In this document: in pieces, positions 13,235-51,001 of the stretch
How the letters are laid out: each line of letters begins with the position of its first letter
Numbering within the stretch: the first letter of the stretch is position 1
IMG/VR virus record: IMGVR_UViG_3300042874_000108
Span: 1 to 51,001 of that record
Reading direction: 5' to 3' (one strand)
DNA length: 51,001 bases
Source of the DNA: a virus
Taxonomy: Duplodnaviria > Caudoviricetes
Notes under the pieces: generated by a model
Databases searched by the model: none
Told to the model about the DNA's origin: nothing
Seen by the model: only the letters and a program-made list of their open reading frames with translations
Position numbers and translations under genes: made by a program

Positions 13235-14017
13235 ATGAGCGTTACGATCACAATTACCGACCCGTCCAGCACGCCTCCAGAGGAGCTTCAGGCGGTGATG
13301 GGGATGCTGGGGGGCTTCCTGCCTACCTCGCGGTCTGCTTTCGAGGGGCTCGGGGCGTCGGCGGTATTCGGCACGCCGCCTCCCCCGCCCGCGGAACACC
13401 CTGACCTGGTTCCGGTAGTTATGCCGGGAGGCGCGGCGCTCATTATTGGCGTCGAACTCGACAAAGACGGCATCCCGTGGGACGGCCGCATCCACACGCA
13501 AATCAAGTCCAAGACCGTCGAAGGCGTCTGGAAGAAGCGCCGCAACCTTGAGCAGGACTACCTTGCCGCCGTGACCTCCGAGCTGCGGGCGACGATGATG
13601 GCCCCCGCTCCGGTGGCCGAGGTGCCAGCGCCCGCCCCGGTAGCCGAGGTGCCCGCTCCGCCCGCCCCGGTAGCCGAGGTGCCCGCTCCGGTGGCCGAGG
13701 TGCCCGCTCCGGTGGCCGAGGTGCCAGCGCCCGCCCCGGTAGCCGAGGTGCCCGCTCCGCCCGCCCCGGTAGCCGAGGTGCCCGCTCCGCCCGCCCCGGT
13801 AGCCGAGGTGCCCGCTCCGCCAGCGCCCCCTGCAGCCCCCGGCATTTCCTTTGCCGAGTTCATGGGCCACGTTACCGCGGGCGTCACCAGCAGCCGATTC
13901 ACCCGTGAGGGGGTTATGGCGGCGTGCGTGGCGAACGGAGTCCCCAATCTGCCCGGCCTCATCAATCGCCCCGACCTCATCCCGGCGGTGGCACGTGAGT
14001 TGGGGTTGATAGCATGA
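13235..14017 (+). CDS. Phage replication-module protein with Pro/Ala-rich repeat linker
   Basis: GAGG RBS; ELDKDGIPWDGRIH...WKKRR domain, eight APVAEVP repeats, small C-terminal helical domain. Confidence 0.8.
   Translation: MSVTITITDPSSTPPEELQAVMGMLGGFLPTSRSAFEGLGASAVFGTPPPPPAEHPDLVPVVMPGGAALIIGVELDKDGIPWDGRIHTQIKSKTVEGVWKKRRNLEQDYLAAVTSELRATMMAPAPVAEVPAPAPVAEVPAPPAPVAEVPAPVAEVPAPVAEVPAPAPVAEVPAPPAPVAEVPAPPAPVAEVPAPPAPPAAPGISFAEFMGHVTAGVTSSRFTREGVMAACVANGVPNLPGLINRPDLIPAVARELGLIA
13604..13822 (+). repeat. Coding tandem repeat (21-30 bp units, eight APVAEVP copies)
   Basis: CCGGTRGCCGAGGTGCC core repeated eight times. Confidence 0.9.
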
Positions 14018-15144
14018 GCGAGCTCTTCCACTTCCCCCTGTCCGCCAGTGCCGCCGCGCGCTGGGTTGCCTGCGCCGGCAGCGTCAACCTGTGCGCCCTG
14101 TACCCGAGCGGCGACACGCCTAAGTCGATGGAGGGCACGGCGGCGCACTGGGTCGCCAGCGAGACTGTCCTCTGCGGTGCGCCTGCCCTCGGAGCCATCG
14201 CGCCCAACGGTATTGAAGTGACTGAGGAGATGCTGGACGGCGCCGATATGTACGCTGCCGACGTGCTCGCGGTTGCGGGCGTTGGCGGCAAGCTGCACGT
14301 CGAGAAGACGATGGGCAGCCCCCTCATTCACTCGGATTGCGGCGGTACACCCGACGCCTGGCACCACGACTCCGGCAACATCACAGTCTGGGACTACAAG
14401 TTTGGCCACGGGTTTGTTGACGTGTTCGAGAACTGGCAGTTGATTGTGTATGCGGCGGGCATCCTGGAGCAACTCGGCGTCACCAACGACTCCGGCGTGG
14501 ATGACTCGTTCTTCACGTTCACCTTCCGCATCGTGCAGCCCCGCAACTACCACCGCGACGGGCCGATCCGCGAATGGCGAGTGCGCGCCAGCGACCTGCG
14601 AGCCCACTTCAACATTTTGCGCATGGCGGCGGAGAAAGCCTGGCTGCGCACCGACGCAAAATGCACGCCGAACGACCAGTGCGACTACTGCGACGGTCGC
14701 GGCCATTGCGAAGCCCTGCAACAGACCGGCTTCAAGGGCATGGACTACGCCAGCGGCTCCACGCCGCTTGAGTTGACCAACGCTGCGCTCGGCACCGAAC
14801 TCACGCTCATCAACCACTACCTCGCGCGGCTCGAAGCGCGCAAGACCGGCCTCGAAGAAATGGCCGTCGCCCAGATCAAAGCGGGGGACAGAGTGCCGGG
14901 CTTTGCGCTCGACTCGACCGTTGGCCGCCTCGCGTGGTCAAAGCCGGTTGAGGAAGTGATCGCGCTGGGGCAAATGATGGGCGTTGAGGTCAGCAAGCCG
15001 GGCGTCATCACTCCGACACAGGCGATCAAGGCGGGCTTGCCGGACACGGTGGTTGCGGGGTACTCGGCGCGGCCCGCAGGCAGTTTGAAGCTGGTGGCGT
15101 CCAAGCACTCGGAGGCGCGTCGGGTGTTTGGTGGTGGCGCATAA
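14014..15144 (+). CDS. DUF2800-type Cas4-like PD-(D/E)xK nuclease
   Basis: SASAAARWVAC, EGTAAH, GTPDA...WDYKFG, QLIVYA, CDYC...C (Fe-S-type cysteines). Confidence 0.85.
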   Translation: MSELFHFPLSASAAARWVACAGSVNLCALYPSGDTPKSMEGTAAHWVASETVLCGAPALGAIAPNGIEVTEEMLDGADMYAADVLAVAGVGGKLHVEKTMGSPLIHSDCGGTPDAWHHDSGNITVWDYKFGHGFVDVFENWQLIVYAAGILEQLGVTNDSGVDDSFFTFTFRIVQPRNYHRDGPIREWRVRASDLRAHFNILRMAAEKAWLRTDAKCTPNDQCDYCDGRGHCEALQQTGFKGMDYASGSTPLELTNAALGTELTLINHYLARLEARKTGLEEMAVAQIKAGDRVPGFALDSTVGRLAWSKPVEEVIALGQMMGVEVSKPGVITPTQAIKAGLPDTVVAGYSARPAGSLKLVASKHSEARRVFGGGA

Positions 15145-15726: not shown

Positions 15727-15843
15727 CGCCCAAGGCAAGCCTCCCGCCGCCAACGAACCGAACGAAGGAGAGAACCCGTGAACGACCAGAAAAACACAAA
15801 CGAAGCCGCTTGCGGCGGGTCGGCCTTGACCGCCGAGTTAGGA
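15721..15843 (+). other. attC-like element
   Basis: GCCTAAC...CAAGGC...CCCGCCGC-loop-GCGGCGGG...GCCTTG...GTTAGGA nested inverted repeats. Confidence 0.55.
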
Positions 15844-16062
15844 CTGAAACCATGCCCGTTTTGCGGTAAGGCTGAAACGCTGGGCGTGATTACCGGGCAG
15901 GAGCTTATGGACGACGATCAAGAGTTTTGGCCGCACTCGGATTCTTATGCCGTGGTGTGTGATGCGGCAACTGGCGGTAAAGGCGGCTGCGGGGCAATGG
16001 GCGGATTTGCTGGCACCAAGCCACAAGCCATTGCCAGGTGGAACACGCGCGCCCCTAACGCA
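15778..16062 (+). CDS. Lar-like restriction alleviation Zn-finger protein; end given is the domain end, since the frame stays open to 17190
   Basis: AAGGAG RBS; LKPCPFCG...VVC...CGA...AIARWNTRA pattern. Confidence 0.65.
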
Positions 16063-16116
16063 CGATGGCCCCTCGCCCAATTAACCCCCCAATTAACCAG
16101 CCAAGCCACATTTTCC

Positions 16117-16144
16117 TTGACAAACGCCGTTCAGCGGGTATTAT
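16117..16144 (+). promoter_or_regulatory. Sigma70-like internal promoter
   Basis: TTGACA-N16-TATTAT just upstream of the ORF at 16151. Confidence 0.55.
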
Positions 16145-16150
16145 GGAGCC

Positions 16151-16360
16151 ATGAAAAGCGAGAAATCGGACATAAGAATCAGCGTCAGGCGCGGGGATGG
16201 GAAGACTCGGAAGATCGAGCTTTTCCCGCACGTGCTGCCGGGGCGCTATTTAATCAAGGTAGACGGTCTCAAATCCGGGAAAGTCGCCACAACCACCGTG
16301 ACCGAGGTAATGCACAAACTTCGGGAGTGGCTATCAACCAAAAGGAGCAACGAGCAATGA
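16151..16360 (+). CDS. Hypothetical basic protein
   Basis: GGAG before ATG; ATGA overlap with SSB start. Confidence 0.55.
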   Translation: MKSEKSDIRISVRRGDGKTRKIELFPHVLPGRYLIKVDGLKSGKVATTTVTEVMHKLREWLSTKRSNEQ

Positions 16361-17190
16361 AGAACTTCACGACACCCGTAGGCCGTTTTGTAACGGGCAG
16401 CCTCACCAAACCCCAGACCACCGATTTTGACGGCAACCCCCTGGTCTTCAAGACGGGCCCGGATGCGGGGAAGCCACGCAACAACTACTTCATCGGCATC
16501 GCTGTCCCCAAGGGCGCCGAGACGCACTGGAGCCAGACGCCCTGGGGCGCAGAAATCTGGAAGTTCGGTCACGAGGCTTTCCCGCAGGGACAGGCGGACT
16601 TGCCGGGGTTCTCGTGGAAGATCGAGGATGGAGACAACGCAGTCCCCAACCCGGACGCCGGCATGAAGCGCAACTGTGACCGCGAGGGGTACAAAGGCTG
16701 CTGGGTTCTCAAGTTCTCCTCCAGCTTCCAGTCGAGCACGTACAACTCCGACGGCAGCGCCAAGATTGAGCCGGAGTCGGTCAAGCCGGGCTACTTCATC
16801 CAGATAAACGGCGACATGCAGAGCAACGGCAAGCAAAGCAAGTCCGGCGTCTACCTCAATCACAAGATGATCGCCCTGGCCGCCTACGGCTCAGAGATTG
16901 TCTACGGCCCCGACGCTGCCGAGGCTGGCTTCGGCGCAAGCCCGCTGCCCGCTGGAGCATCCGCCGTCCCGGTGGCGAGCTTCGCGCCGCCTGCTGCGCC
17001 CCAAGCGCCCGCTGCACCTCAAGCGCCGGTGGCTCCGCCGCCCCCCGCACCTGCCTTCCTGCAAGTGCCGCCGCCGGCCGCCCTGGCTCACGTCATGTTG
17101 CCGCCGGCCAACGGCGCAACTTACGAGGCCATGCGCGCGGCGGGCTGGACTGACGCCACGTTGGTTCAGATGGGGATGATGGTGGGATGA
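16357..17190 (+). CDS. Single-stranded DNA-binding protein (DUF2815/gp2.5-like)
   Basis: AAGGAG RBS; TPVGRFV...KIEDGD...GCWVLKF...GVYLN; typical position between DUF2800 and polymerase. Confidence 0.75.
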   Translation: MKNFTTPVGRFVTGSLTKPQTTDFDGNPLVFKTGPDAGKPRNNYFIGIAVPKGAETHWSQTPWGAEIWKFGHEAFPQGQADLPGFSWKIEDGDNAVPNPDAGMKRNCDREGYKGCWVLKFSSSFQSSTYNSDGSAKIEPESVKPGYFIQINGDMQSNGKQSKSGVYLNHKMIALAAYGSEIVYGPDAAEAGFGASPLPAGASAVPVASFAPPAAPQAPAAPQAPVAPPPPAPAFLQVPPPAALAHVMLPPANGATYEAMRAAGWTDATLVQMGMMVG

Positions 17191-17378
17191 TGGACGAGGT
17201 ACTTGACGCCAAGCGCCGCCTTCAAACCGCGGTCATGCGCGCCTGCCGTGCGGAGTTGCGGGCGTTCGAGAAGGAAAGGGGGTTTCGCATGGATCGAGTG
17301 AGCACGGAGTTGGGCACCAGAGACCCCGAGTCCCTCAACCTGCGCATTGAAATTGTGGCAAGGAGGGGGAAACAGTGA
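17187..17378 (+). CDS. Hypothetical protein
   Basis: 63 aa, coupled to both neighbours. Confidence 0.55.
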   Translation: MMDEVLDAKRRLQTAVMRACRAELRAFEKERGFRMDRVSTELGTRDPESLNLRIEIVARRGKQ

Positions 17379-17614
17379 ACCCAATCGCCCGATTGAGGGA
17401 GGGAGCCGCCGGCACCTGCGGGTCGTGCAGGTATTGGAGCCCGTGTGCCGGGGACACCAGCGTTGGCGATTGTGACTCTGCTCTTCTCGTAAAGGGGTAC
17501 GGCGACCCCCCGGCTATCGTCCCTTCCAACATGGCCTTTGTTGAGGCTGACGAAGGCTGGGCGTTCCTTTCTGGCCCGGACTTTGGCTGCGTGAACTGGG
17601 AGCCAAACGAGTGA
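17375..17614 (+). CDS. Small Cys-rich protein
   Basis: GGAGG RBS; CGSCRYW...GDC...FGCVNW. Confidence 0.6.
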   Translation: MNPIARLREGAAGTCGSCRYWSPCAGDTSVGDCDSALLVKGYGDPPAIVPSNMAFVEADEGWAFLSGPDFGCVNWEPNE

Positions 17615-17628
17615 TGGTGGGCTGAGGC

Positions 17629-17905
17629 GCAGCGCAACGATACACGGCCAGCGTCTCCTAACGGGGGCGTTGTCCGGGTCTTGGTTGGCCCAAAGGCAGG
17701 GCAGCGCACTGCACGGCACGGCAAGGCAACGCACTGCATAGCAACGCAACGATACACGGCCAACGTCTCCTAACGGGGGCGTTGTCCGGGTCTTGGTTGA
17801 CCCAAGTGCACCGCAGGGCAAAGCAGTGCAACGCCCAGAAAAACACGGCACGGCAACGCAACGCAACGACACACGGAACCGGCGAGGAATATTCCGAGCC
17901 TTTTA
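17629..17905 (+). ncRNA. Putative structured guide-RNA array: GCA-NN pentamer tracts alternating with a conserved two-hairpin repeat
   Basis: 60-bp repeat at 17634-17693 and 17746-17805 (two mismatches, both keeping stems via G-U); 11 GCA-NN pentamers at 17696-17750; 12-unit tract at 17808-17867. Confidence 0.7.
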
Positions 17906-17919
17906 TAGAGGAAGCGAAA

Positions 17920-18519
17920 ATGGCAATTCAGCAAGCAGCAATCACAATTACCGGCATGGACTACCTGCTCCAAAACAACCCGCAGACCGTTGACCCGTTC
18001 AACCACTTCGCCAAGGCCATGAAGAAGATCACCGCCAAGCGCACGGGGAAGACCGAAGACGATCTGATCGAGCTGGGCAACATCGAAACGGAATCGAAGA
18101 TTTACTTCGACGACAACCTCGGTGTGTACGTCCCTTCGCGCTGGCTCACGGAAGCGATCTGCCGCGCGGCGTTCTCGGTAATCAAGATTGGCAAGGACAG
18201 GATGCGCGGCGGTATCTTCGCTACCGACGGCAAGGCCAAGTTGTCGTATGAGGGCATGGGCAAAGTCAAGACCATTACCGACGTGGTGAGGCTCCCGGAG
18301 TTCCGCCACCGCGCCTTGCTGCCGCAGGGAGCCGTGCGTATTGCAAAGGACTTCCCGATTTTCAAGAACTGGTCTTTCTCAACGGTGCTTGAGTTCGACG
18401 ACACGGTTATCGACCTCGCTGGGCTGCGCCAGGTTACTGAGCGGACAGCGAAGTACGTCGGCTTCGGTGACTTCCGCCCCACCTTCGGTCGTGCCACTGC
18501 GGAGGTGCAAGGTGTCTAA
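17920..18519 (+). CDS. Stand-alone Cas7/RAMP-like RNA-binding protein (Vipr-like)
   Basis: GAGG RBS, ATG 17920, 199 aa; ITITG..LL beta strand, YVPSRWLTEAI helix (cf. RAMP IPGSSLKG), C-terminal Gly-rich loop VGFGDFRPTFGR. Confidence 0.7.
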   Translation: MAIQQAAITITGMDYLLQNNPQTVDPFNHFAKAMKKITAKRTGKTEDDLIELGNIETESKIYFDDNLGVYVPSRWLTEAICRAAFSVIKIGKDRMRGGIFATDGKAKLSYEGMGKVKTITDVVRLPEFRHRALLPQGAVRIAKDFPIFKNWSFSTVLEFDDTVIDLAGLRQVTERTAKYVGFGDFRPTFGRATAEVQGV

Positions 18520-18928
18520 AGAACTACTGGTAGAACTTGAGAAGCGCGGCCTCCTTGACTTCGGGGAGGTCATTCCCGCCGCCATTGTCCGCGACCTGCT
18601 GGGGCTTGAGTACCCTACGACCGCAACGAAGAAAGAGTTTGACGCCTTGTCCCTGGCTGAACTGAAGGCGGTTGACTACGTTCGTAATGTCCTCCTCGGT
18701 CGCGGCATGTACCTGGCTGGACAAGGCGGCGACTACCGAATCCTGCTTCCCTCGGAGAACGCGAGGCAGATAGAGCTGTACATATCCTCCGCCGACGGTA
18801 AGTTGAGCCGGGCACTGAAGTTGAGTCGGAACACGCCGAAACTGGCGGACAAGAAGCACACGAACGACCAGACGAGTGCGCGCATAATCATGAAGCGCGA
18901 GGGAGTGCGGCGGGGAATCGGCAGATGA
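18512..18928 (+). CDS. Hypothetical accessory protein coupled to the RAMP-like gene
   Basis: GGAGG RBS at 18501, GTG start overlapping the upstream stop, ATGA overlap with the polymerase. Confidence 0.7.
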   Translation: MSKELLVELEKRGLLDFGEVIPAAIVRDLLGLEYPTTATKKEFDALSLAELKAVDYVRNVLLGRGMYLAGQGGDYRILLPSENARQIELYISSADGKLSRALKLSRNTPKLADKKHTNDQTSARIIMKREGVRRGIGR

Positions 18929-47604: not shown

Positions 47605-50118
47605 TCATAACCCCATCACCTTCAACATCTGCGTCTCTCTCGGTTCCAGCAGGCGGCGGAAGGCTCGCCCCATAGCGTCCACGATATCGTCGTGCGTCTC
47701 GTTCGGGAAGCCATCAAGCTCCTTTAGGGCCGCGTCATTCCAGGCCCCTCGGACGAAGTCAACGTTGCCGACGTTGACTTGCGATGCGAACGGCTCTGCC
47801 CGTGTCACCTTGTCCCCCGACTCCGTGCTGGTCCTGACCCGCATCCCCGCCATCTTGCTGACGAAGTATTGGACTTGGTGCTTGCCAGCCTGGCCGGGGT
47901 CTTGCGGGATGTCCTGCTCCACGCCGAACCCGTCGTTGCCCGCCGTGCGTACCAGCAACTCCTCGACCTCGTGGGGTTTGCCGCGCATTCGCACCATCCC
48001 CGTGACCACGAACCGCCCGCCCTGCGTGCGCCCCATCCGGGCGCCCACCGTCCAGTCCGGCTCCCTGCCAGGCTTCTCGGGGTCAAATTCAGTGCCTGCG
48101 AAATCCCACCCGCGTACCTCGGTCAAGTCGGCTGGCGCGGCGTCGATGATGCTGACCTTGTTGCTGGTGAACACACCGCCTTCCCGCGCCCTCCGGGGCT
48201 TGCCTCCCCAGATGTGCTCGTATTTCCCGGGGTTATTGATGCGCATCTTCTCGGCCTGCACCAGCGCCTCGGCGGACAGAAGGGGGTTGTCGAGGTAGCT
48301 CACCTCCACCAGCGTCGTGTCGTAGTCCGCCCCGCCCACGTAGTTCCGGTAGGTATAGTCGTCCTCCATGCCGGTGTTGAAACTCAGCCACATTTCGCTG
48401 CCGCTGGCCCGGATGGTCGGCTCCAGCGTGTCCCATGAATCCTCTGTGACGCTCACGGCTTCCTCGACCCAGCAGATTTTCGCCCCCTCGAACGATTTGA
48501 TGTCCTGTATGTTGTGAAGCCCACGGAAAGCGAACTCACTGCCCGTCAGCTTGCAGCGGATAGCGTTCACCAACACCTCAAAATGGTCAGACAGCCCCAG
48601 CACGTCGATCTTGTCCGCGATCACCTTGAGCACCGAGTCCGCCATTGACGACTGAATCTGCCGGCAGCACAGGATGGTAATTTTCTCCTGCATCGCGCGC
48701 ATCACCGCCGCCACCGCGAATTGGTGCGAGTTGTGGGTGACTGTGAAATCCTCCAGGAAGAACAGGTGGTCTCCGTCCAGTTCAAAGCCGAAGTAGTCCC
48801 CCTCCCCCAAGTCTTCGAGGTCAATCCCCCCTCGCCGCCAGTCTTTATTCTTGCCCCCTTCGACCACCCGCTTTCGTGCCACTTTGCACGGTATCCGCCA
48901 CACGTCGCCGTCAATGCTCAGGCTCCAGGCTTCGCAAACCTTCCCATTGTTGGTGCAGGTTGCGTCAGCTCTCCGAAAGTTCGTCTTGAATCCCAGGCTG
49001 TCCGCAACAAACTTCACTTGTCGCAGCAGTTCCCCGTTTTTCTGGACGATCTTGATCCCGTTGTGGCGAACGTGGCCATCGGAGTCAACCATGCCGGCCA
49101 GCAGCCGCAACCGCTGATCCCCGCTCCCGGTACGGTACTCAAACGGCAGGCTCTTGCTGCCGAGCACCCCCAGTCCGCGCAGCTTCCGGTTAACCTCGTT
49201 CACTTGTTTGTCGCCTTTTCGGCTCACGATCCGGTAAATCGCCGCTTTCCCGCCGGGCTTGCGGCTGGACTCGACTCGCATCCCCTGGGACTCTGCGAAC
49301 TCTGTGAGGTAGTCCGCTATCTCCTGGTCGGCTGAAGTGACCGCCGCGCGTACAGAGTCCCCGTCCCCCAGCCACAGGCCGAGGAAGTACGGGTCGAGAG
49401 GCAGCTCCTTCTCGCTGAAGAACCCCTCGCCCTTGAACCCGAAAAAGTTTGCCCTGAACCGCTTGCTCTTCCCCGCGAAGTCCCTGGCTGAGATCAGCGA
49501 GGGGTCGTCTCCCCACTTGGCGTAACGACCGTTTGCCCGCTGCGGGTTTCCCGCTGAAGAGAAGTGACCGAAGTCTTCACGGGCCGCCTTTGAGCGAGTC
49601 AAGGCCAGAACGTGATCCTCGTTCACAATGTAGTCTTCCCCCGACTTCTGCCTGACCCGGAACAGCTTGCTGCGGCCCTGGGTGGTGCTCAGCACCGTGC
49701 GCGGCGTGCCATCGACACCCAAGAGTTGTTCCCCCTCGCGGACGTCCTCGACTGCGCGCAGCGATCCGTCAAGCATCACCACCTGAGTCCCCCTGCCCAG
49801 GCACTTCGCCCCGCCCCGACCGCCGTAGTAGACGTAGTACCGCGTCCTGGCGTGCCCAGCCTCCGCGATCAGGTCGAGTGGTACGGGTGTCCCGCCCTCA
49901 AACCACCCCGCGTCGGTCTGGTACAGCCCCGCCCGGTACTCCGCATCCTCGACCGCCCGTATCGCCCACAGGCGGTCAGCCGGTTTGCCGTCCGTGTAAC
50001 AGACAGTCTTGTGGTCTCGGGCAATTACCGCCTTGCCGCCTGTTGTCAGCGTTGGCGTCCTGGCCGGCGCGAACAATGGAATGAACTTCTCGTTGGGTAT
50101 CTCAAGCGGGCGGGGCAT
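47605..50118 (-). CDS. terL: Terminase large subunit, intein-containing
   Basis: YGGRGGAK|S Walker A, WVEEA Walker B, PTIR..GSE.W.SFN, C-terminal nuclease HDDIVDA. Confidence 0.92.
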   Translation of the reverse strand: MPRPLEIPNEKFIPLFAPARTPTLTTGGKAVIARDHKTVCYTDGKPADRLWAIRAVEDAEYRAGLYQTDAGWFEGGTPVPLDLIAEAGHARTRYYVYYGGRGGAKCLGRGTQVVMLDGSLRAVEDVREGEQLLGVDGTPRTVLSTTQGRSKLFRVRQKSGEDYIVNEDHVLALTRSKAAREDFGHFSSAGNPQRANGRYAKWGDDPSLISARDFAGKSKRFRANFFGFKGEGFFSEKELPLDPYFLGLWLGDGDSVRAAVTSADQEIADYLTEFAESQGMRVESSRKPGGKAAIYRIVSRKGDKQVNEVNRKLRGLGVLGSKSLPFEYRTGSGDQRLRLLAGMVDSDGHVRHNGIKIVQKNGELLRQVKFVADSLGFKTNFRRADATCTNNGKVCEAWSLSIDGDVWRIPCKVARKRVVEGGKNKDWRRGGIDLEDLGEGDYFGFELDGDHLFFLEDFTVTHNSHQFAVAAVMRAMQEKITILCCRQIQSSMADSVLKVIADKIDVLGLSDHFEVLVNAIRCKLTGSEFAFRGLHNIQDIKSFEGAKICWVEEAVSVTEDSWDTLEPTIRASGSEMWLSFNTGMEDDYTYRNYVGGADYDTTLVEVSYLDNPLLSAEALVQAEKMRINNPGKYEHIWGGKPRRAREGGVFTSNKVSIIDAAPADLTEVRGWDFAGTEFDPEKPGREPDWTVGARMGRTQGGRFVVTGMVRMRGKPHEVEELLVRTAGNDGFGVEQDIPQDPGQAGKHQVQYFVSKMAGMRVRTSTESGDKVTRAEPFASQVNVGNVDFVRGAWNDAALKELDGFPNETHDDIVDAMGRAFRRLLEPRETQMLKVMGL
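48730..49803 (-). mobile_element. Intein with LAGLIDADG homing endonuclease (358 aa)
   Basis: CLGRGTQV...NEDH.L...LGLWLGDG...LAGMVDSDG...VTHN followed by Ser. Confidence 0.93.
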
Positions 50119-50632
50119 CGTGATCGTAGGTCTGGCCGGTGGCAACTGTGGCCGCCCCATGCACCACCAACACAAACTGGGGTGGCGGGGCGCTTGTTGG
50201 GGCCGCTGCGTCGTCAACGGGAGCCTTCTCCCGGTACCTGGCGTTGCGCTGGCCCGCCTTGCGCATCAGAAAGTCAGCTTGCAGCTTGGCCAGCGCCACC
50301 TGGGCGGCAGTCACAGTTTCGTAGTCCAGCGCCTCGATCTTCGCCTCGGCCCTATCCGTCAGCGCCTCGGCGCTCCGCTGGTAGGCCAGCGCGTACAACT
50401 CCCGATCCGCCGACTGCAACAGGTAATTCGTCAGCGTTCCCCGGTCAATGCCCAACGTCCCGGCGATGGCCGCGTGACTGTGGCCGTTCGAGATCATCTC
50501 CAGCAAGCTCTCCGTCCCAAACGCCTCCAACACATCCCGTTGCCGGGGAGCCACGGGCAGTTCGAGCCTGTGTGACTTGGTGGCCAGCAGATTACTCACG
50601 GATACCCCCATTTGTCCCTGCATGATCGGCAC
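50102..50632 (-). CDS. terS: Terminase small subunit (start uncertain)
   Basis: N-terminal HTH, YALAYQ..AE.L, AKLQAD...RY.EK; immediately upstream of terL. Confidence 0.7.
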   Translation of the reverse strand: MPIMQGQMGVSVSNLLATKSHRLELPVAPRQRDVLEAFGTESLLEMISNGHSHAAIAGTLGIDRGTLTNYLLQSADRELYALAYQRSAEALTDRAEAKIEALDYETVTAAQVALAKLQADFLMRKAGQRNARYREKAPVDDAAAPTSAPPPQFVLVVHGAATVATGQTYDHDAPPA

Positions 50633-50704
50633 ATTCCATCAATCCTCCGCTGGGTCAGCAGGCCGCAACGGGCGCAACGTGTTCCTTTGAACTTCATGGG
50701 CGCG

Positions 50705-50805
50705 AGTATAGGGCCTCTCCGGGTTTCGTCAAGTTCCTCGTCAGCACGGGCTTCGTCAAGTTACTCGTCAGCATAGGGGCTCTCCGGGTTTCGTCAAGTT
50801 ACTCG
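50705..50805 (-). promoter_or_regulatory. Tandem sigma70-like late promoters within three direct repeats
   Basis: Minus strand TTGACG-N16-TATACT (50732-50705) and TTGACG-N16-TATGCT (50797-50770); repeats at 50720-50746, 50747-50773, 50785-50805. Confidence 0.65.
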
Positions 50806-50886
50806 GCGCTAACTTTTGGAATTTTTCATTTTTATAAAAACTCGCGCGGAGGGGGTGCGCTGTGTTGCCTCGGGGGTCCTGGCGTC

Positions 50887-51001
50887 GCCCTGCCCTGCCC
50901 TGCCCTGCCCTGCCCTGCCCTGCCCTGCCCTGCCCTGCCCTGCCCTGCCCTGCCCTGCCCTGCCCTGCCCTGCCCTGCCCTGCCCTGCCCTGCCCTGCCC
51001 T
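50887..51001. repeat. Right-end perfect pentanucleotide repeat (GCCCT)23
   Basis: Runs to the end of the window. Confidence 0.95.

Follow-up and report, generated by a model that had tools for sequence, protein, structure and literature searches.

The Viral Interference Programmable Repeat (VIPR) system, first described in 2026, is a CRISPR-like RNA-guided DNA silencer that consists of a RAMP protein (Vipr), an accessory gene (vap) and guide RNAs termed vrRNAs (10.64898/2026.04.26.720920). As set out in that preprint, a vrRNA is about 100 nt long, is encoded in intergenic arrays, and comprises 9–16 GGY/NN units with a structured tail at the 3′ end; it reads double-stranded DNA with one base skipped per unit, most often that at the codon wobble position. 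The Felix O1-like phage SUSP1 provides the model system, with type II VIPR assigned to Escherichia phage SUSP1 and to a Pseudomonas fulva prophage (10.64898/2026.04.26.720920). Further preprints state that SUSP1 Vipr reads the first G of the triplet by H17 and D177 and the second G by R138 and W178 (10.64898/2026.04.26.720927), that satellites and rival phages hijack Vipr with decoy or solo vrRNAs (10.64898/2026.10.15.759431), and that a genomic language model finds non-canonical VIPR clusters with GAC/NN, CAC/NN, WGT/NN and TGH/NN repeats beside a Vipr-like fold (10.64898/2026.10.21.760802). Here, the complete 51,001-base virus record IMGVR_UViG_3300042874_000108 (hereafter the window) was analyzed, and the locus at 17629–18928 is, with a probability of roughly 90% as judged from sequence, a phage VIPR cassette with a GCA scaffold, composed of a vrRNA array, vipr and a vap1-like gene. 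The cassette sits between a gene for a Gp2.5-like single-stranded DNA-binding protein (SSB) and polA.

Similar to the VIPRs of SUSP1 and P. fulva, the locus has a minimal RAMP gene, an accessory gene homologous to the Felixounavirus post-vipr gene, and intergenic arrays of five-base units (three bases fixed and two free) with a structured 3′ tail; at the level of its clade, it also shares with them the 1-nt skip at the wobble position and targets that lie in other phages, and like them it shows no self-targets. It differs in that H17 and R138 of SUSP1 Vipr are replaced by N and F, the protein identity being only about 30%, and in that the tail consists of two plain hairpins, no search for a pseudoknot having been made. 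With the clusters of the genomic language model, by which scaffold variants are already in print, the locus shares 5-nt units, a fixed non-GGY trinucleotide and an adjacent Vipr-like fold. The discovery preprint itself admits “a related consensus” beside GGY and gives NNNGG, YNNNG and NNNNG as alternative repeats (10.64898/2026.04.26.720920); therefore, a non-GGY triplet lowers the assignment to the canonical type, not the assignment to VIPR. Although GCA as letters was not found by a term search in the main texts of the VIPR-related preprints, GCA/NN may already be among the published clusters, because, read in another frame, it falls under YNNNG as CANNG and, read from the complementary strand, under TGH/NN as TGC/NN. 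The locus extends a kind of system already set out in the 2026 preprints. Compared with the Cas7/Csm3 filament of Class 1 CRISPR, the RAMP fold is common to both, as would be, following the papers cited above, the binding of one protomer per guide unit and the periodic interruption of the guide–target duplex. In contrast, the period here would be 5 nt with three bases hidden instead of 6 nt with one base flipped, with the guide hard-wired into tandem units. Scanning the window for tandem repeats revealed no CRISPR repeat–spacer array, and no cas families of Pfam or PHROGs were found among the 16 open reading frames (ORFs) scanned around the locus.

The array occupies the gap between a small ORF (17375–17614) and vipr. 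An earlier note on the letters of the window had reported two tracts there, one of 11 perfect GCANN units and one of 12 units that includes three degenerate triplets (GCC, GAA and ACA) in register, both tracts leading into GA(T/C)AC ACGG, and this description was confirmed in every part (Table 1). The final one or two AC units of tract 1 are constant, and the final two units are so across all modules. A vestigial tract of two units, which starts right behind the stop codon of the preceding 79-aa ORF, was absent from the earlier note. When the pattern (GCANN)4GCA was searched with at most one mismatch, 29 matches were obtained in the window, compared with a mean of 0.04 and a largest count of 2 in 100 dinucleotide-preserving shuffles; 10 of the matches lay in 17696–17865 on the + strand, and the remaining 19, on the − strand, in a separate perfect repeat with which the contig ends on the right. 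A 112-nt higher-order period (2.1 copies, 82% matches, 17629–17863) was detected by Tandem Repeats Finder, because each tract is trailed by a 57-nt element.

Table 1. Features of the putative VIPR cassette, in positions of the window.
Feature	Position	Strand	Description
Vestigial guide tract 0	17629..17638	+	Two units, GCAGC GCAAC, then GATAC ACGG; found by tiling back from the tail
vrRNA tail copy R1	17639..17695	+	57 nt, two hairpins; -27.4 kcal/mol, z -3.21, 1/200 shuffles fold as well
Guide tract 1	17696..17750	+	11 perfect GCANN units, in order GCAGG GCAGC GCACT GCACG GCACG GCAAG GCAAC GCACT GCATA GCAAC GCAAC; NN = GG GC CT CG CG AG AC CT TA AC AC
vrRNA tail copy R2	17751..17807	+	57 nt; -28 kcal/mol, z -3.70, 0/200 shuffles fold as well
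Guide tract 2	17808..17867	+	12 units in a single 5-nt register, in order GCACC GCAGG GCAAA GCAGT GCAAC gccca gaaaa acacg GCACG GCAAC GCAAC GCAAC (degenerate units in lower case); NN = CC GG AA GT AC CA AA CG CG AC AC AC
Reduced third tail	17868..17908	+	First 9 nt of the tail (GACACACGG) kept; -9.4 kcal/mol, z -0.98
vipr	17920..18519	+	199 aa, predicted minimal RAMP; phrog_4652, E 2.4e-48
vap1-like gene	18512..18928	+	138 aa; GTG start overlaps the vipr stop, own stop overlaps the polA start

In the window and five relatives together (296 units), the first three positions were mostly G (0.93), C (0.79) and A (0.91) and carried 1.53, 1.05 and 1.40 bits of information, respectively, while positions 4 and 5 carried only 0.10 and 0.02 bits. 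These values support the fixed triplet with free NN that had been proposed, and contradict simple slippage, against which the earlier note had argued. A functionless pentanucleotide microsatellite made by slippage might be suspected, as the right end of the window is indeed a perfect pentanucleotide repeat, (CCCTG)23; however, the tracts are heterogeneous with a fixed triplet and nearly uniform NN, and their architecture is retained in 34 of the 42 clade loci described below, which leaves this explanation a negligible chance.

The 57-nt elements are the candidate 3′ tails of the vrRNAs. R2 is predicted to fold into a 13-pair hairpin with a UAAC loop, followed by GGGUC/GACCC. In an alignment of 23 tails from 10 loci, 89.8% of the hairpin 1 positions could pair, a level that none of 500 shuffles reached (shuffles, 67.6%; slid controls, 38–50%), and 11 of the 14 pairs were changed on both sides. 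One pair was U-G in all 23 rows, and the general abundance of U-G pairs in hairpin 1 fits an RNA made from the + strand, the strand of vipr. The fold of the entire array was no better than that of shuffles (z −0.68). Beyond its first 9 nt, the third tail has a weak hairpin (17881–17900) and UUUU at 17901–17904, just 5′ of the vipr ribosome-binding site, and the hairpin before vipr was not flagged in a terminator scan. At this position, relatives carry a variant two-hairpin tail and a strong terminator; for the GCA-type clade locus L009, the fold was −24.9 kcal/mol with z −4.08. Of the vrRNAs that the window would then hold, that of tract 1 and R2 is complete and canonical, that of tract 2 has a reduced tail, and the two units with R1 are a vestigial copy. 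No Rfam family reached its gathering score in the window, and none was found at E ≤ 0.1 in six related loci; likewise, no tRNAs were found in the window, nothing was found by a promoter scan of 17000–18200, and no DNA-level similarity was detected between the array and phage records.

The strandedness of the array also bears on a reading in which it acts as DNA, that is, as a replication origin or iteron field with GCA as a possible primase recognition site. Its location between the SSB/exonuclease genes and polA and its direct repeats of 112 bp would agree with such a role. Against it, all GCA units are on a single strand, that of vipr, the conserved U-G pairs of the hairpin would be C-A on the opposite strand, and the array accompanies vipr into non-replication contexts, namely the head–tail region of phiHSIC and a site between tail genes in LittleE. 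An origin at this place is thus extremely unlikely.

The vipr product of the window matched no Pfam family. In a tblastn search, it aligned to Felixounavirus proteins with ~30% identity at 98% coverage (E 1e-15), and the aligned Felixounavirus homologue BPS15Q2_59 carries H17, K33, R138, D177 and W178 in SUSP1 Vipr numbering. The AlphaFold2 model of the window Vipr had a predicted local distance difference test score (pLDDT) of 97.7 and matched 27 PDB chains at E ≤ 1e-3 with a template modelling score of about 0.5; the rows listed were all CRISPR RAMP subunits or effector-complex chains, for example Csm3 (6ifn_F), type IV-A3 (8s37_E) and type VII (8z4l_F). According to this model, the window Vipr is predicted to fold as a minimal Cas7/Csm3-like RAMP. 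Of 1007 candidates, 747 proteins fell into its family at E ≤ 0.001, with 1516 clusters at 50% identity, and no near relatives were found in representative prokaryote genomes.

The vap1-like protein, which is on record as a 138-aa protein of the window, had 128 relatives at E ≤ 0.001. By BLASTP, it matched gp45 of Vibrio phage 1.266.O, the gene after vipr there (E 1e-8), and, over 119 aa, the post-vipr gene of Salmonella phage BPS15Q2, phrog_5926 (E 2e-5); by synteny with the SUSP1 description, the latter gene would be vap1. The vap1-like model (pLDDT 90.3) had no PDB match at E ≤ 0.001, its best rows being non-significant winged-helix DNA-binding domains. Both vipr and the vap1-like gene are full length and intact, with family-invariant residues retained.

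The array was compared among the relatives of Vipr; an alignment of 100 diverse Viprs was unsuited to finding loci because of its diversity. Each of the five viral contigs with a 77–80% identical Vipr carried, upstream of the gene, 4–7 tail-anchored tracts, in modules of one GCANN tract and one two-hairpin element, and GCANN tracts were confined to this one array in the whole records of the five. In Vibrio phage 1.266.O (Vipr 51% identical) GCANN tracts flank the gene on both sides, and in phiHSIC (50% identical) they lie downstream of it. The Felixounavirus homologues, at about 30% identity, were flanked by 5-nt-phased GGT tracts, and phased GGC tracts were present in three of the four actinophage loci (Trine, LittleE and MakoManhole), with none in prophiBWHA-1 at the threshold used. 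A locus was called GCA-type if, among the trinucleotides phased at 5 nt on the vipr strand, GCA ranked first and had 7 or more phased pairs. Among the 42 viral loci with a Vipr at least 40% identical, GCA was the top phased trinucleotide in 34 and GAA in 2, the signal being weak in the other 6, while GGC or GGT was on top in 29 of the 38 distant loci (Vipr 24–30% identical). The two loci in which GAA instead of GCA is phased, L046 (52% identical, 9 pairs) and L072 (42%, 39 pairs), present a further scaffold variant.

The scaffold triplets were paralleled by residues at the published guanine contacts. In the 34 GCA-type proteins, position 17 was N in 31, K in 2 and S in 1, and position 138 was F in 20, A in 9, M in 2, C in 2 and V in 1, with neither H at position 17 nor R at position 138 in any of them. 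In contrast, all 27 GGC/GGT-type proteins had H at position 17 and R at position 138. The window Vipr has N19 in place of H17, F at the R138 position, and D184 and F185 in place of D177 and W178; positions 177–178 belonged to the search pattern and are uninformative for the motif comparison. The GCA scaffold therefore appears, across these sequences, to go with loss of the contacts H17 and R138, and since the GCA and GGY groups form two clades, the pairing of residues and motif may reflect a single historical change.

The earlier note had further proposed a reading in which each unit skips one target base and which would ignore codon wobble positions. When NN series were searched under different skip models against shuffles, this held for the clade, while the window’s own guides did not rise above shuffles. 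A strong signal at the 1-nt skip was obtained with the locus L011, whose Vipr is 78% identical to that of the window. In a 458-kb local set, guide 1 of L011 matched the locus L107 at 23 of 24 NN positions with the 1-nt skip, compared with 16–17 in the other skip models and 19 in a shuffle; extended by one unit, it matched at 25 of 26 positions. Over both lengths (24–26 positions), the other skip models reached 16–19 and shuffles 18–19. Written as NNx over 12 units, the L011 guide had exact matches in 98 viral contigs, and with 24 specified bases the chance expectation is far below one. The target was in frame with the wobble base skipped in all 80 loci fetched, where it encodes YRAFVT[H/Q]TLNPY in 38 distinct DNA versions; the open frames have a median of 305 aa, and the target gene is an AAA_24/Sak4-like ATPase. 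At these 80 sites, neither the first unit nor the last constant unit was ever paired (0/80 each), while the units with degenerate triplets were paired.

Guides of two other GCA-type clade loci pointed to the same region. The L009 guide matched at 18–19 of 20 positions in 22 of the 80 L011-target loci, on the opposite strand and wobble-phased, at a site encoding [S/T]TLFVDLEAG. The L041 guide matched at 14–15 of 16 positions in 79 of the 80, wobble-phased in the next gene at [S/G]F[D/E]LIPKG, a match that alone is not significant. These results indicated that the 1-nt-skip rule holds for the GCA clade, on real phage genes. A fixed scaffold, informative NN and a one-base skip, as read by the earlier note, are the published VIPR code, and this reading is therefore supported by the family and the clade.

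The targeted contig shared by L107 and L193 has a vipr homologue of its own (about 26% identical) directly upstream of the Sak4-like gene (L107:1285-3361), and the phrog_2300 gene beside this ATPase is likewise matched by GCA-type guides. The L107/L193 locus retains H17 and R138, and in its GC-rich phased repeats GCG, CGC and GGC are about equally frequent. Here, phages that bear VIPR may be targeting one another.

The targets of L011 also weigh on the possibility that the array is a cis-acting leader, in which the GCA triplets would be binding sites of the downstream protein or of a TRAP-like ring protein controlling translation or termination, and NN would be mere spacers. TRAP, which acts on the trp leader, is a ring protein with an 11–12-subunit beta-sandwich that binds spaced triplets. 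The 11 triplets with 2-nt spacers just 5′ of a gene, the hairpin and U-run before the ribosome-binding site, and the strong terminator at that place in relatives are consistent with such a leader. However, the adjacent protein is predicted to have a RAMP fold, not a TRAP fold, the arrays are downstream of the gene in four loci (L054, L059, L061 and L071), and the NN of L011 spell a conserved foreign phage motif in 98 contigs with all 24 positions matched, which is unexpected of spacers; a cis-acting role is therefore very unlikely. A telomere-template idea, considered together with the TRAP-like ring and the origin, was dropped given the RAMP fold and the VIPR papers.

Several points weigh against assigning the window locus to VIPR. 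The triplet is GCA, not the defining GGY, and GGY substitutions in SUSP1 were reported to abolish silencing (10.64898/2026.04.26.720920). Of the three modules, a single one is complete, with two units in the first and a reduced tail in the last. When 118 clade guides were searched in a 1.36-Mb set, the mean best-match fractions were 0.783, 0.791, 0.791 and 0.795 across the skip models compared with 0.785 for shuffled guides, and the clade-level support for the code depends on a few very strong guides. Moreover, no convincing target of the window’s two guides was found in the searched collections. The viral, metagenome and genome collections were scanned with the 1-nt skip for exact matches, so that targets with 1–2 mismatches are invisible to these scans. 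Units 1–9 and 2–10 of guide 1 and of guide 2 each had 0 exact matches in viral contigs, and the 11-unit pattern had 0 in metagenome contigs. With 9 units, three unrelated matches were obtained in metagenome contigs, none of them wobble-phased in a long open frame, and six matches in genome contigs, from six unrelated taxa, two of which were wobble-phased in a long open frame.

One of the six genome matches covers all 11 units of tract 1 (22/22 positions) and lies in an AcrB-family gene of a Terriglobia metagenome-assembled genome (L117:1501-1532), wobble-phased and on the opposite strand (PVVYSVLRRSAP), where the estimated number of chance matches in the genome collection was about 0.07–0.16. 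Guide 2 had no match in this genome with up to 3 mismatches, and the match in a chromosomal efflux-pump gene is probably due to chance. Mismatch-tolerant local searches with the window guides under all skip models gave nothing above shuffles in sets of 163 kb, 458 kb and 1.36 Mb, and no self-target of the window guides was found within the window.

These results could also be explained by a decaying VIPR cassette, i.e. one that is VIPR by descent but whose guides are relics no longer directing silencing. The window has two full tracts compared with the 4–7 tail-anchored tracts of its five close relatives; its first module is reduced to two units, its last tract combines three degenerate triplets with 9 nt of tail and a weak hairpin, and its guides have no target in any collection searched. 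On the other hand, vipr and the vap1-like gene have stayed intact with their invariant residues, tract 1 has 11 perfect units with a well-folded tail, and degenerate triplets still pair in the L011 guide that has 98 exact targets. In addition, the exact scans are blind to 1–2 mismatches, and the relevant rivals may be outside the collections. Decay is accordingly rather unlikely, and a VIPR cassette with a GCA scaffold remains the preferred reading.

From the observed parts, homology, fold, tail structure, fixed versus free unit positions and 1-nt skip of the clade relatives’ guides, a mechanism can be drawn by analogy with SUSP1 and P. fulva. The array would be transcribed on the + strand into vrRNAs of about 110 nt, each made of a GCANN tract and the two-hairpin 3′ tail. 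Each 5-nt unit would be bound by one Vipr protomer, with GCA hidden and the NN pair presented, and the resulting filament would read double-stranded DNA as NN-x-NN-x, so that codon positions 1 and 2 are recognised and wobble changes are ignored. Such binding would silence a gene in a rival phage or in some other mobile element.

More speculatively, GCA/NN might be an orthogonal VIPR “dialect”, in which the H17/R138 contacts are lost, only the phage’s own guides are loaded, and GGY decoy or solo vrRNAs have no effect; dialects could then fight each other, and the right-end (GCAGG)23 could be a Vipr sponge or loading site. This tentative proposal is consistent with the data, because L011, a GCA-type locus, targets the Sak4-like gene beside the vipr homologue of L107/L193, which keeps H17 and R138. 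What appears to be new here is the clade-wide GCA scaffold with matching protein substitutions, and the extension of the 1-nt skip and of inter-phage targeting of a Sak4-like recombination module to this clade. The logic of VIPR, in print for only months, was thus recovered from the sequence by itself and extends to a large clade with another scaffold triplet. The association between GCA and N/F, and between GGY and H/R, offers a testable switch of protein–RNA specificity, and the Sak4-like ATPase module appears to be a recurrent target of inter-phage silencing.

The arrays also matter for annotation, as GCANN five-base arrays beside phrog_4652 genes can be given a VIPR annotation and should be kept out of ORF calls. 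A TTG-start ORF of 245 aa (17782–18519) passes through tract 2 into vipr, and a 237-aa version is on record (P0001), while the start of vipr homologues corresponds to the ATG at position 17920. Guide tracts can thus be absorbed by gene callers as an extended N-terminus. Three GCANN tracts overlap the annotated ORF21 of Listonella phage phiHSIC on the opposite strand (L015:4621-4874), and 12 phased GGC units lie at the start of annotated gene 40 of Gordonia phage Trine (L017:3122-3181). Both sites are probably arrays annotated as protein genes.

The cassette is surrounded by a replication module. This includes an exonuclease of the DUF2800/PD-(D/E)XK kind, an SSB protein with Lar-like and Gp2.5-like parts and, downstream, a DNA polymerase of family A, the relatives of which, at about 50% identity, only loosely point to phages of Gammaproteobacteria. 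In the 470-aa SSB protein (15778–17190), an N-terminal Lar-like restriction-alleviation zinc ribbon (Pfam E 2.1e-7) is joined to a Gp2.5-like ssDNA-binding/annealing domain (phrog_7011, E 2.8e-68).

Both ends of the record are repetitive. At the right end (50887–51001), the perfect (CCCTG)23 equals (GCAGG)n on the − strand, which has the guide-like GCA-NN form but is homogeneous; the sequence after it on the − strand showed no tail-like fold (z +0.72), and no perfect pentanucleotide repeat of at least 8 copies was found in the other loci compared or in the records of the five relatives. An assembly run-off, a Vipr sponge, a loading site or something else could account for this repeat. The left end (1–251) consists of a 30-bp unit in 6.3 copies (95% matches) followed by a 39-bp unit in 2.6 copies. 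As both ends stop in tandem repeats, the “linear” ends are probably assembly breaks. Elsewhere in the window, a tandem repeat with 30-bp and 99-bp units (7.1 and 1.9 copies, respectively) lies at 13604–13821 within the overlapping ORFs 13235–14017 (+) and 13558–14817 (−). Finally, a 27-bp unit (CGGGCTTCGTCAAGTTACTCGTCAGCA) occurs in 2–3 direct copies at 50720–50773 and 50690–50810, upstream of a − strand gene (50102–50632) with a helix-turn-helix-like stretch, and these copies look like operators.

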